Part shown: positions 12,570 through 61,358 of the stretch, in pieces
Position numbering within the stretch: position 1 is the first letter of the stretch
How the letters are laid out: each line of letters starts with the position of its first letter
NCBI GenBank assembly: GCA_951406725.2
Contig: OX597819.1
Coordinates: forward strand, 69,626,001-69,690,000
Origin: Octopus vulgaris
Taxonomy: Eukaryota
Length of the DNA: 64,000 bases
Direction of reading: 5' to 3'
Notes under the pieces: generated by a model
What the model saw: only the letters and a program-made list of their open reading frames with translations
Database searches by the model: none
What the model was told of the DNA's origin: nothing
Position numbers and translations under genes: made by a program

Positions 12570-12921
12570 GTCCATCAGCGTTCACTGTTTTTCCCTCGTT
12601 CATGTCTAACGACCCATTCATGTTCTTTTTTCGTTCGGTTTCCCCGAATGTCTCCACTGTCCTGTTTTTGCTCCTAACTTTGAGCCTCCATAAATACAAA
12701 ATTTTATTTTGGTCTTTATGGGAGCAATTGTCTTCGAAGACTCATATTGTCGTTGATTGCTCGAAATGGAGAGTAGATAGTCAGCCCACAACTGATGGAG
12801 GGTCGCTCTTTGTATTTTTGTATTACTTGCCTTGTTTTCCATTTTTTCCCCCGTTATTTGTGTATTTAATTCTTTTGTTTTCGTATTTCTTGTTGTTTTC
12901 TGTTGGTGGCGTCCTGTACCG
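12570..12921 (+). mobile_element. Terminal-repeat-like element ending GCGTCCTGTACC, with a permuted hammerhead-like motif
   Basis: Related to 61021-61358; abuts a TA array; motif at 12722-12798. Confidence 0.6.
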
Positions 12922-40321: not shown

Positions 40322-40799
40322 CATTCAGGAAGTAAATAGACTGCTTTACTTTTCAAAATGTTTTATTTGATATCAATTGGTTGAAGGAGAGATTTTCTTC
40401 TAGCTGCTCGACCATAATACCCAAGCTTATGCAGATATGTAACACACGTTCTTGGACTAACTTGTAGCTGTTTTGCCATGTCAGAAGCCTTCGAACGGGG
40501 CTTTGAATTGCACTATAATTCTATTAACAGTAGCAAGACGAATTTGAAGATTTTCGGTAATATTTCGCAGGCTAAGACCAGCCTCAGATTGCCCAACAAA
40601 ACGAATTCTTTGAAAATCTGACAGTAGTGCTGAATTTTTTGTGCGTGGCATGGTTACTCTTCGCAAATGTTTAATATAATGGCACCTAGAATGTAAAAGA
40701 ATAATTACATTGTAAATTCTACATTACTGAAACATATTAAGACGCTTAGATTAGAAATTTTGAAAAGTAAAGGTGTCTACTTACTTCCTGCATGTTTGT
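40318..40799 (-). mobile_element. Tc1-like non-autonomous element (same family as 16454)
   Basis: Same TIRs; [49 protein letters not shown] (Tc1 HTH). Confidence 0.85.
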
Positions 40800-40969
40800 T
40801 TTTCCTTGGGGCTGGCCGGATCGGAGCGATCTTAAGATTAATCAGCCGAAATTGCTAGGATGATCCGGTTCTTGACTGAAGATTGAAGGCTTCGAATGTC
40901 CCGTCCGTGTTTTTTGTATAGTTTTCTAAATGTTTTACGTTCTTTTCCCAGTTTGTATTTTTCTACATA
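40800..40969 (+). mobile_element. Partial direct copy of the 3' part of the 41044-41709 element
   Basis: Near-identical to 41542-41711; includes the permuted hammerhead motif. Confidence 0.85.
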
Positions 40970-41043
40970 TAAACACATTAAAGGCGGTTGGAAAACGGTG
41001 CTGGGGAACAAACACAGACACAGACACAGCCTCGTTGGCCTTA

Positions 41044-41709
41044 TGTAAGTACATATTCCTGTAAATTTGGTACGACTCTACACACTGTCTCTCTCTCCTA
41101 CATTTCTCTGCCTTTCACACTTTGCATTCTACTATGATCTGTCCCCTTCTCTCTCTGTCTCTCTACTTCTCCTTTTCTCTTTTCTCCCCTCTTTAATTCC
41201 TTCTTTCTCTCTCTTCTTCCCCTTTTGTTGCCTTCGTCCCTCTTTCTCTCTCTCTCTTTGTTTCCTTTGCTCCCTTTCTTTTCTCTCTCTTCTGTCACGT
41301 GACCGCTGGTCAAAATCAGCCTTTTGGCCTCCGACCACTGCCGTGAGAACATCTGTTGTCTTCGTCTGCCGATAAAGGCATTTATTCAAAATACGCCAGT
41401 CGTAAGACACCCGCTGTTTTTGTCCTGTTTTTACCATTATTGTTTTTTGTATTTTATATTCGTGTGGCATCGTCCGTTTTTCTGTCCCTGTTTCGTATAT
41501 ATTCGATCCTTCTTCCAAGAAAGAAGGTTAGTTAGATTAGTTTTTCCTTGGGGCTGGCCGGATCGGAGTGATCTCAAGATTAATCAGCCGAAATTGCTAG
41601 GATGATCCGGTTCTTGACTGAAGATTGAAGGCTTCGAATGTCCCGTCCGTGTTTTTTGTATCGTCTTCTAAATGTTTTACGTTCTTGTCCCAGTTTGTAT
41701 TTTTCTACA
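41044..41709 (+). mobile_element. LTR/pLTR-like repeat (TG...CA) with a permuted hammerhead motif
   Basis: Begins TGTAAG, ends TTCTACA before a TA array. CT-rich interior; related to 58935-59390. Confidence 0.6.
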
Positions 41710-41731
41710 TATAAATAATATATATATATAT

Positions 41732-42900: not shown

Positions 42901-45900
42901 CCTTAAATCCTTAAAAATGTTTTAGCCCGAAGGCCGCGGCCATGCTGGGGCACCACCGCTGAATGAGCCACACTAGTTTGTGAATCCACCTCTGATACGT
43001 GGCACTTGATCAACAAGGGAGTTCGATGCTGCTGCCCGCATCCGTGTCTCCTGTCGTGAGGTAGGTTCATCTGGGACTCCCAACAAGAAGAGATCCAGTT
43101 TAGTTTTAAAGAAACCCACATCCACACCATGTAAGTCTCTCAGGCATTTAGGGAGGATGTTGAAAAGCTGTGGTCCTCTGAAACCCAAGCTGTTGCAGTA
43201 TCTGGACCTGTATTTTGATGGTGATGTTGGAATCCTTGGCACCACGCAGCGGCGCCCCGTTCTGCGGTTGGAGTAACTTTGAATGCCAAAGTTTGGGACA
43301 AGACCCTCCAGGATTTTCCAGATGTATATTACTGCATATCTCTCCCGCCTCCGCTCCAGGGAGAAGAGGTTTAATACCTTCAGTCTTTCCCAGTAGCTGA
43401 CATTTTGCATTGAGACGATTTTCTTTGTGTAGCTTCTCTGAGTTGCTTCGAGTTCTGCTGTTTGTTTTATATTGTGTGGTGACCAAAGTTGGGAGCAGTA
43501 GTCCAAGCGGCTGAGGACAAATGTTTTCCATAGGACCATCAGTGTCTCCTTCTCTCTTGTTCTGAAAGTTCGGAGAATCCATCCAGCTAGCCGTCTGCAT
43601 TTTATCACCAGATTAGCAATATGCATTTGGAAAGATGCATCATTGCTCATGTCAATGCCCAGGTCACGCACTGATTTTGACTCAGGGATTGCAATTCTTC
43701 CTGGGCCAGTGTATCCAGTCTTCACGTCATTTACCTTTGTGTGCCAGTAGCGCAGGGCCTGGAACTTACCTGCATTAAACTGCATGTTGTTGTCCTCAGC
43801 CCACCTGTATATTGTGTCCAGCTCATGTTGCAGATGCGCAATATTTTCAGGGTTCTGTATTGCGTGGGAGACCTTTGTGTCATCTGCATAGCTAGCAAGG
43901 GTGGTCATCGTAGCAACTGAAGGCATGTCTGAAAGGGCCACTATGAACATCAGTGGCCCCAAGACAGTGCCCTGTGGGACACCGCTTGTTACTTGCGTTT
44001 CCCTGGAGGTGGCTCCATTGCTCACAACTGCCTGTTTTCTGTCTTTTAGGAAGTTGTGCAGCCACTCTCCAAGTTTCCCGCCTATGCCGAGACCACGCAG
44101 TTTGTGACAGATCATACCATGGTCGACTTTATCAAAGGCTTTTGCAAAGTCAAGATATATTACATCCACATTTGAGCCATTTAGTAGCTGTTTCAACACC
44201 CAGTCATAGTGTTGCAGGAGCTGTGTTAGGCAGCCTCTACCTGGTCGAAATCCATGCTGGGTGTCAGACAGTAAGTCATTTTCTTCAAGGAACATGATTA
44301 GTTTCTTACGGACTATTCGTTCCATGACTTTGCTGATGTGTGAGGTCAGAGAGATAGGCCTATAATTTTTAGCATCTGCTCTGCTACCTCCCTTATGGAT
44401 AGGGCATATTACCCCCTCTTTCAGTTTGACTGGGAGCTTACCACTTGCAAGAAAGCTCTGAAAAAGAAGCTGTAGCGGTTTTGCAAGGGCTCGTTTGCAC
44501 AATTTGAGAAGGATCGCTGGGAATCCATCAGGTCCACCAGCTGAGTTTGTGTCAATCTCATCAATGGCTAGTGTGATATCATCTTCTTCGATGTTGATGT
44601 ACTCAATTTTTGTCTCTTTGGCCGCTGGTAAAGTGGCAAAGAATTCTTCTGGGTTGTTTACTTGCCTGTGTCCTAGAGGTGTAGTGAATACACTTTGGAA
44701 CTGTTCGTTCAGTATTTCACTTATCCTCGTGGGATTTCCTGTGAGAGAGCCATCTTTTTGGAAGAGAGGTCCTATTCTCTGGTGCACTGTGGCTGTCTCT
44801 TTGGCAAACTTAAAGAAAGCTTTAGGGTTTGATTTTATATTTTCTATTACCCAAGCTTCTTTATCTGCTCTCTCCTTTTCATGGGACTGATGTAGACTTT
44901 TCTCAGTTTCCATTAGCATTCTTTCGAGCCGAGACTTCTCACCACTTTTGGTGTGCTTGCTCAGGCGGTTTGCAATCCTTGTCCGTCGTCTCATAAGAAT
45001 CCTCCTTTCTCTAGGGATCCTGTTTTTATTCTTGTGTGTGCTGGCCCTGCACATTGGGACATATTTGTCACATATGGCTTGTATTATGGACATGAAGTGT
45101 TTGTGTTTCATGTTTATGTCCGGTGTGGAGAGACATTCAGGCCAATCCTGTTTGAGGATCTCTTTCTCAATCGACTTCCAGTTGGCTTTATGAAAGTTTA
45201 AGTTGGAGAGATGGTGGGTGCTTCGTATAGGCTGTGTGTCTGCGGGGGCTTTTGTTCCATACGTAGACAGCTCTATTATGTTGTGATCCGAGATCATTGT
45301 CGGCATCACATTAACATTATGGATAATATCCATATTGTTTGTAAAGCAGAGATCCAGTATATTATCTGCCCTTGTTGGTTGCAGAACTATTTGCTCCATG
45401 AAAGAGGTATTTGTGAGATGGAGCAGGGACTCCACCTGTGCCTGCTGATGGTGTGTCATCCCTGGGAGCATCTGCCCCCAGGCCATTCCACATTGGGGAG
45501 GTTAAAGTCACCCATGAAGAATACACTGTTGTGCTGTTCAAGGTTGGTGAGGACTTCTCCTATTTTTGTTAGGCAGTCTTCAAACATGCCTGAGTGTTTT
45601 GGGGCGTCTGGTGGGCGATATGTAGTGCATATGACGATATTCAGTTGTCTTATGTGTACAATTTGAGTTTCACATACTGAGTTTGAATATGACAGCAGGA
45701 CCTGGGGCGTGAGGTCATCTCGGATGTACATTGCAACTCCACCATGGCTCCTCCCTTTTCTATCTGTGCGTATGACTGCATATTGCGGCATGTGTATTTC
45801 TGCATCACCTATATCGGGTTCAAGATGCGTTTCTGTGAGTGCCATGCATATAGCTTGATTGCATGTCACAAGGTCTCTCAGGAATGAAATTTTCTTTTTA

Positions 45901-46112
45901 CAGTTTCCGCGCAGCAGCCCTCCTACATTCAGTAGAAATATTTTTGTGGTGTGTGTGTTGGTGTTGGTGTCTGTGGTGGCCATCCTGCATCTGTTGGAGG
46001 TGGCCTTATGTGGTGGTAGTTCCAGCTTTGTGCTTGTAGCCAGGTCAGCTGCTGAACAATTTTTTGTGCCATGCACAAAAAAGACTGCTGTTCAGCTGCC
46101 GCCCTTCTCACA
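42898..46112 (-). mobile_element. CR1-group LINE, truncated in ORF1, with near-intact ORF2
   Basis: APE endonuclease plus RT, short 3' UTR with a stem-loop, and (TAAGGATT)-type terminal repeats. TA arrays on both flanks. Confidence 0.95.
42973..45983 (-). CDS. LINE ORF2 (APE endonuclease plus reverse transcriptase), one frameshift at ~45475-45479
   Basis: EN motifs: LLNVGGL, LTETHL, GGVAMY, YRPP, MGDFN, LDL, SDHN. RT motifs: NYRPISLTS, QHGFRPGR, YLDFAKAFDKV, SGVPQGTVLGP, YADD. Confidence 0.9.
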
Positions 46113-58770: not shown

Positions 58771-58934
58771 ATTTCAGTATTTTTTCATTCTTTTACTTGT
58801 TTTATTCATTTGACTAGAGCCATGCTGGAGCACCGCCTTTTTAGTCGAAGAATTCGTCCCCTAGACTTATTTTTTTGTAAGCCTCGTACTTATTCTATCG
58901 GTTTCTTCTGCCTAAGCGTTAAGTTACGGGGACG

Positions 58935-59390
58935 GCCAGGCCTGATCTTTTTTTCTTGGTTCGGCCGTCGTCCGTGCAACATCTCTATTCCTCCTTGTGC
59001 CTGTGAAACCTTGTATCACTGCCGTAAGGCTTTATTTCCACACACACCAGCTTAATTTAATTCATACTTAGACGAAAGGCACCTGTTGTTATCTCCCGTT
59101 ATTTGTATTTGTGTAACATTCTGTTTTTTCCGTCCTTGTTTTCGTATACATTCGCTGCATTCTTCCTAGGAATCTAATGCTCTTAGTTTAGTTTTTCCTT
59201 GAGGCTGACTGGACTGGAGCAATCTCGAGTATAACGAGCCGAAATTGCAAAGAGAATCTGGAACTCGACTGAGGAAAGAAAACTCCGAATGACCCGTCCT
59301 TCTTTCCTTTGTATTGTCTATCTGGATGTTTTGTTGTCCCTTTTTTGTATCATCTAACTGGCTGGATGTCTTGCGTTCTTGTCCCATTTT
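58935..59390 (+). mobile_element. LTR/pLTR-like repeat related to 41044, with a permuted hammerhead motif
   Basis: Shared TTAGTTTTTCCTTG.GGCTG...GCCGAAATTGC...GACTGA.GA...CGAATG.CCCGTCC...CGTTCTTGTCCCA. Confidence 0.65.
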
Positions 59391-59419
59391 GTGTGTGTAT
59401 ATATATATATATATATATA

Positions 59420-61020: not shown

Positions 61021-61358
61021 GGGTACAGGACGTCACAGACTGTAAACAACATAAAATATGTGAGCTGAGTACGCAAACAACTGGGAAACTGGGCAAGTGA
61101 CATAACGAACTACCCTTCTTCTGTTGTTGGATGCCCACCTACTCCTCATTTCGTGCATTGAACGGCAATATAAGTCTTCGAAGGCAGTTGCTGGCATAAA
61201 TACCAAAATAAAATTTGGGATTTACGGAGAGTCAAAGTTGGGGCAGCCGACAACTAATGAAGTGTGGTTCTTTATGTTACTTGCCCAGTCTTCTATTTGA
61301 TTCTCTCGTTGTTTGCGTATTCAACTAACTTGTTTTCGTTTGCGACTTCCTATACCCA
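61021..61358 (-). mobile_element. Element with long inverted ends (GGGTACAGGACGTC / GACTTCCTATACCC), related to 12570-12921
   Basis: 61021-61137 and 61241-61358 are imperfect inverted copies; degenerate permuted hammerhead at 61116-61193 on the minus strand. Confidence 0.65.

Follow-up and report, generated by a model that had tools for sequence, protein, structure and literature searches.

The repeat copy at positions 58933 to 59392 of the window (the whole 64-kb stretch of octopus DNA analysed here, AT-rich and microsatellite-dense, from a genome of 2.8 Gb) raises the question of whether a hammerhead ribozyme may be assembled from its usual parts in an order that divides one of them. This non-coding copy, on the forward strand, belongs to what we call family A, measures about 460 bp over the extent common to other copies, looks like the 3' end of a Penelope-like element (PLE) and is followed by (TG)/(TA)n. 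The first-pass annotation had described a scrambled hammerhead here, and its letters are all at the places given: GGCT at 59203-06 facing AGCC at 59237-40, GAAA at 59241-44, GCAAT at 59219-23 plus C59224 facing ATTGC at 59244-48, stem I as TCGAGT at 59225-30 with ACTCGA at 59263-68, and the core CTGAGGA at 59269-75; the copy at 41.5 kb likewise has TCAAGA/TCTTGA and CTGAAGA. The stems and core that it called hold, but it missed the helices that we name b, e and f, and its span of 59195..59285 left out the 5' part of the motif from 59159.

Read from family majorities, the motif has six helices in the strand order e-f-loop-f'-II-b-III(U)H-I-short linker-II'-GAA-III'-b'-I'-CUGANGA-e'. The majorities draw on 34 copies of family A, 35 of B, 18 of C2, one of C1, 15 of D, six of E, 36 of N and three of N2. 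In the 59-kb copy, where all parts are on the forward strand, the 5' strand of helix e (59159-59164) pairs with 59276-59281, which lies right after A9 in the usual place of stem II, and the 5' strand of helix f (59165-59172) pairs with 59195-59202, which joins stem II with zero linker. The 5' strand of stem II (59203-59208, with G10.1 at 59203) is displaced upstream of the core and is followed by the 5' strand of helix b (59209-59215), which pairs with 59255-59261 and bridges stems I and II as in type SGC. Then come the stem III strand to U16.1 (59223) and C17 (59224), together 59219-59224, after which the cut is predicted; the stem I strand immediately 3' of it (59225-59230, pairing with 59263-59268); block G (59235-59248), made of the stem II 3' strand at 59235-40, GAA at 59241-43 and the stem III strand from A15.1 at 59244-48; the helix b 3' strand; and a stretch (59263-59275) that holds the stem I partner and the core CUGAGGA, whose N7 is G, A or U depending on the family. 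The bases after A9 make only 0-1 pairs with the stem II 3' strand, helix e taking them instead. The closing helix was first placed at 59190-96 with 59278-84, a register that gave way to e and f, which suit all families.

The family consensus keeps the pairings proposed from the single copy, and the majority pairs better than that copy does. Stem II has 6 bp in the majority, of which the 59-kb copy retains four, with breaks at 59207 and 59208; it also keeps 6 of the 8 pairs of f and 5 of the 6 of e (6/6 in the majority) and has lost one of the 7 of b, while its core is intact. The 59-kb copy is an old, decayed insertion that records selection on a master element and not on itself, and judged by its letters it is rather unlikely to be active as a ribozyme.

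Family A is abundant. A 17-mer seed from it has 1,275 exact genome matches against 0 for the reversed control, and 39 copies besides that in the window, at 89-92% identity, were scored (40 of 765 candidates in all); the motif is located roughly 120 nt upstream of the repeat's 3' end. Family B, which is 74-79% identical to A and hence shares its ancestry, is represented on the forward strand by the copy at 41030-41715 (motif at 41508-41630, predicted cut after 41573) and, in tandem just before it, by a 5'-truncated copy at 40795-40973 that is without the 5' strands of e and f. Two family B 17-mers have 481 and 2,213 exact matches, the second also catching related subfamilies. This family is younger than A, with 98-99% identity among the top matches, and shows ~830-bp tandem arrays (8 units at one locus, L092), inverted 5' duplications and (TA)n flanks. 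Further family B subfamilies were seen at L306-L343, and a sequence at L121:6372-6510 is an A/B intermediate with the stem I of B, an A-like stem III and a short deletion. Two decayed family E copies, of the same architecture with different stems, lie at approximately 12685-12805 on the forward and 61105-61235 on the reverse strand.

Other features of the window were recorded in passing. For 41580-41635, the coded run X2, which is only guessed to be RNA, contains a variant with N7 = G in a short contig of very high depth; such contigs show neither expression nor ends. A LINE-type ORF2 occupies 42976-46091 of the reverse strand in two frames (endonuclease at 45459-46091, RT at 42976-45501; Pfam PF03372, PF00078). 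A segment of about 3.0 kb is duplicated in tandem (about 47.7-50.7 kb, then about 50.7-53.6 kb); a 100-N gap lies near 50.6 kb, and the duplication is possibly an artefact of assembly.

The two stem I changes between the copies at 59 and 41.5 kb, which the first-pass annotation took as its best internal evidence of selection, are fixed family differences: among 29 distinct rows of A and B, one pair is GC in 18, AU in 10 and unpaired in 1, and the other is UA in 18, AU in 10 and unpaired in 1. Across A and B, 92.3% of 1,102 cells are paired against 28-54% with slid partners, and five family-level double-sided changes occur (two in stem I, two in b and one in e; a sixth is found in a single copy). 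Helix b has 93.6% of its cells paired in these families, with its 2 family-level double-sided changes. Because A and B are kin, this covariation is modest when taken alone, and the two stem I changes by themselves are weak evidence; the case gains its strength from six further families, from Naiad 3' ends parsed by eye and from the 5' ends of copies, and together these support a scrambled hammerhead under structural selection with a predicted cut after C59224.

A descriptor of stems I-III, run on 445,569 bases, found the further families C, D and E, so their stems I-III are in part selected by the search, while e and f were absent from the descriptor. In the eight family majorities, which represent about three independent lineages (A/B, C/D/E and N/N2), 197 of 204 cells are paired and 24 of 27 pairs show double-sided change; helix b is left out of this count, as is the truncated C1 for e and f. 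Three pairs never vary, namely G10.1-C11.1, A15.1-U16.1 and a single pair in e. Counting b from the A and B comparison, each of the six helices shows covariation, while the core letters stay constant. In all seven untruncated families, e and f can be closed inside a single unit by linkers of zero length, family B having two U-U mismatches at the junction; the first f pair is mismatched in 11 of the 29 A and B rows, all of them A copies. The observed zero-linker score of f plus e was reached, among 3,000 shuffles, by 4 for A, 3 for E, 11 for N2, 86 for C2 and 128 for D, and it is not significant alone in N (964/3,000) or B (1,571/3,000).

A strict descriptor gave 2 matches in the window against 0 in 30 shuffles, the 59-kb copy with its 4 stem II pairs falling below the cut-off; the full descriptor gave 1 match in 400 kb of unbiased genome, and 1 match also arose when that sequence was shuffled 20 times. 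Nested MFE folding, a method that cannot represent pseudoknots, gave no stability signal (z from -0.58 to +0.53). Within-family mutation rates were 0.009 in the core, 0.036 in stems I-III, 0.050 in b, e and f and 0.033 in loops, but they come from top BLAST matches and are not relied on.

Is the motif, then, a hammerhead, and of which kind? The core CUGANGA, GAAA and an NUH cleavage triplet are present in 8/8 family majorities and intact in the 59-kb copy, stems I, II and III abut the core, and besides the invariant G10.1-C11.1 and A15.1-U16.1 all 13 remaining stem I-III pairs covary. Readings as HDV-like, twister or pistol ribozymes, made by eye, were dropped once every hammerhead core letter and stem fitted. 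Rfam covariance models gave no hammerhead match up to E 10 in 58930-59395, and the 150 matches listed of 328 were taken up by microsatellite-driven miRNA matches, none at its gathering score. The stem II 5' strand does not directly follow CUGANGA, which means that block C is not intact. A viroid hammerhead study reportedly found one extra nucleotide tolerated between A9 and stem II.

The nearest relatives are the type-SGC (HRIMA-1) and type-CSG hammerheads, which according to the available text of Eckert et al. 2023 (PMC10085705) cleave in vitro. They have the same cyclic block order S-G-C and all the core letters of the octopus motif, as well as its linker of 1-5 nt from stem I to stem II and its helix bridging these stems. 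However, their three blocks are uninterrupted, whereas in octopus helices e and f split block C: the stem II 5' strand precedes the other hammerhead blocks, CUGANGA comes last, and e and f bridge the two, an arrangement outside all six published orders given there (PMC10085705). That text treats block C as uninterruptible, the known alignments showing no insertion of more than 1-2 nt at this place (PMC10085705). Moreover, thousands of copies of the octopus motif sit in the genome of an animal, while theirs were drawn from metatranscriptomes and metagenomes, with a single bacterial GCS candidate besides (PMC10085705). Canonical or minimal type I hammerheads, known from PLE pLTRs and from animal (non-LTR) retrozymes, likewise lie close to the 3' end of PLE-type repeats and in non-autonomous tandem units; they are circular permutations with a contiguous CUGANGA-stem II, often without helix III, whereas the octopus motif is multiply pseudoknotted, with a full stem III and units of about 800 bp. 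Neither a split block C nor permuted hammerheads in Naiads are described in the open-access literature searched, which takes in the available parts of bioRxiv 10.64898/2026.07.22.740005, PMC13725137, PMC10162972 and PMC6155905; subscription papers, Repbase/Dfam notes and supplements could differ. From its sequence, the motif is likely a new hammerhead topology, found in none of the six published permutations.

By eye, the same layout is also seen beyond octopus. File S5 of PMC8557442 has 54 Naiad consensuses; for 49 of them we parsed the final 350-500 nt, by eye only, and eight of the 49 show the full split-core layout, including e and f, with unrelated stems: Obim, Ovul, Amil, Aacu, Anas, 3_Chem, 2_Movir and Plae, among which the three Acropora and the two Octopus entries are near-duplicates. 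Their hosts are octopus, corals, a jellyfish and an acanthocephalan; Esco is a partial fit by eye. Intact type-CSG hammerheads, also by eye, are present in seven nematode Naiads (Parc, 1-3_Nbra, Hcon, Hpol and Asuum), a type known from two sequences in the available text of Eckert et al. (PMC10085705). The other 33 ends were unparsed, had no core in the excerpt, or were represented by too short an excerpt. Craig et al. 2021, in the parts available, describe Naiads as being without canonical hammerheads and give only the labels 'HHR_core' and 'HHR_half_core' (PMC8557442); some of the nematode Naiads with a type-CSG hammerhead carry only an HHR_core or half_core label there. In the same excerpts, bivalve and hemichordate Naiad 3' ends have no CUGANGA; a second conserved motif common to them might be a structured RNA or ribozyme of another kind. 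Several arthropod Naiads have a C-run directly 5' of CUGANGA that we could fit to neither layout.

Within the octopus genome, a 14-mer taken from the Naiad supplement is found at 554 places against 14 for its control, and family N matches by eye the published Naiad_Ovul 3' end, with the same motif at the same place (PMC8557442). Families A and B share with Naiads, as described in the available text, (TA)n targeting and tandem and inverted 5'-truncated copies (PMC8557442), although they are non-coding and no RT was found alongside them. This bias and style of insertion are common to other PLE clades, and therefore are not diagnostic of a Naiad. Among the listed frames in the 1.5-kb flanks of 60 loci there was no RT frame beside A or B, nor an ORF with the N-terminal GIY-YIG and C-terminal RT of a Naiad, so that these families would be at most non-autonomous dependents; equally, there was no RT frame within 1.5 kb of family N copies and no Naiad RT at 45 N loci. 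The shared motif and target nevertheless make it reasonably likely that A and B are mobilised by a Naiad.

Two other candidate partners, both Neptune-type elements, were rejected. A Neptune-type RT fragment beside one A copy (L006), considered as a master, led to a young PLE family without similarity to A or B in 29 further loci, and the one 3' end of it that reaches far enough has, by eye, a canonical-looking minimal hammerhead. This family (L064-L090) has more than 100 near-identical RT copies, with frames of up to 1,214 aa, and the minimal hammerhead is at the 3' end at L064. A GIY-YIG element lies upstream of the C1 copy; its other copies end in (TA)n before the motif, and therefore C1 is only inserted in that tail. 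An older PLE family with RT and C-terminal GIY-YIG was also seen (L154-L172), whose 3' UTR has a conserved GAAA-containing stretch and no CUGANGA in view.

Cleavage of the RNA after H17 would be expected to leave reverse-transcribed copies that begin at that point, and the 5' ends of genomic copies can be read for such a footprint. In a first set, made of the first 40 chromosome-1 matches of each seed (80 copies, seed starting at +11, classed by eye), 23 copies begin at 0 to +11, six of them exactly at 0, and two of the 23 represent a duplicated locus. Five others begin at -32 or further upstream, none at -1 to -31, and 40 run through the site; 12 apparent ends were internal indels and were dropped. 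As a control for anchoring bias, the first 40 matches of a seed at +59 were classed by eye, four run-through copies being shared with the first set. Here 22 of 40 run through the predicted cut and 18 end in view, at 0, 0, 0, +2, +2, +3, +9, +10, +11, +11, +12, +12, +13, +19, +29, +35, +40 and +41. Thirteen of these ends thus lie at 0 to +13 (3 exactly at 0) and five at +14 to +59, with none at -1 to -31. Ten of the 18 fall within 12 pre-set positions of 91, for which a hand calculation gives a binomial chance of about 3 in 100,000. Ends assigned to 0 may be off by one base, as a T is common to copy and target, and around +5 to +11 the sequence is AT-rich and able to join (TA)n by microhomology, which may shape the ends there. 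An internal start site might also contribute, but the edge of the peak falls on the predicted phosphate. The run-through copies imply that cleavage is incomplete or that its products are re-joined. This pile-up of 5' ends from the predicted cut onwards suggests cleavage in vivo.

It could be argued that the motif descends from a CSG or SGC hammerhead but is now a conserved non-catalytic structure, such as an RT-binding or template signal, and that an internal start site or microhomology with (TA)n targets produces the 5'-end peak. The broken A9-G10.1 link, for which no precedent was found in the literature available to us, the many copies that run through the site and the AT-rich sequence just 3' of it would all be in keeping with this proposal. 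However, all catalytic letters are retained across lineages whose stems have turned over, and the peak has a sharp edge at the predicted phosphate, with nine copies at exactly 0 (±1) and none in the 31 nt upstream, a stretch in which AT dinucleotides also occur. We thus find a loss of catalysis improbable.

The ribozyme might instead be active as a dimer or tandem multimer, with strands exchanged between units and e and f serving only as scaffolding. Tandem arrays do exist, e is weak in B and N, and a parallel is at hand in minimal PLE hammerheads, which reportedly cleave as dimers (Lunse 2017). Yet in none of the units is CUGANGA followed by a stem II strand, and therefore strand exchange cannot restore block C; in addition, e and f close inside one unit without linkers, even in B with its two mismatches. 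This arrangement is in our view very unlikely, more so than a non-catalytic role. As to pairings that arose by chance and were inherited by related repeats, the common ancestry of A and B and the absent MFE signal are what such an origin would predict, but it is so hard to reconcile with the shuffle and slide controls, the covarying pairs and the same layout in distant phyla that we give it almost no credence. The self-cleaving hammerhead is the reading that we retain, and from sequence comparison we predict that the motif very probably works as one.

In the mechanism that we propose, a non-autonomous Penelope-like repeat would carry, close to its 3' end, a six-helix, pseudoknotted hammerhead whose RNA cleaves itself after C59224. 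Helices e and f would stack on each other and form a four-way junction with stem II and the core; its crossing strands, A9 to e' and f' to G10.1, would set A9 beside G10.1 without a backbone link, while helix b would hold stem I to stem II, as it does in type SGC. Cleavage would create the 5' end of many of the templates that a Penelope-like RT, likely that of a Naiad, inserts as copies at (TA)n sites. The run-through copies and the tandem arrays would stem from multimers left uncut or joined again.

Taken as a whole, it is probable that the motif represents a seventh topology among natural hammerheads, with a four-way junction in place of the A9-G10.1 backbone link, that it is active in vivo and sets the 5' ends of Naiad-type templates across cnidarians, acanthocephalans and cephalopods, and that it is an ancestor or a descendant of the CSG hammerhead of nematode Naiads. 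The pile-up of 5' ends bears on the role of hammerheads in Penelope-like elements, a question left open by Craig et al. in the available text (PMC8557442). If the seventh topology is real, the stated assumption on possible hammerhead wirings, that block C is indivisible, would be overturned, and it would be clear why Naiad ribozymes escaped descriptor searches. Naiads would then no longer count as lacking hammerheads, and animal genomes would hold an abundance of non-circularly permuted ribozymes, which would move from anonymous metatranscriptomes to named, high-copy animal retrotransposons.
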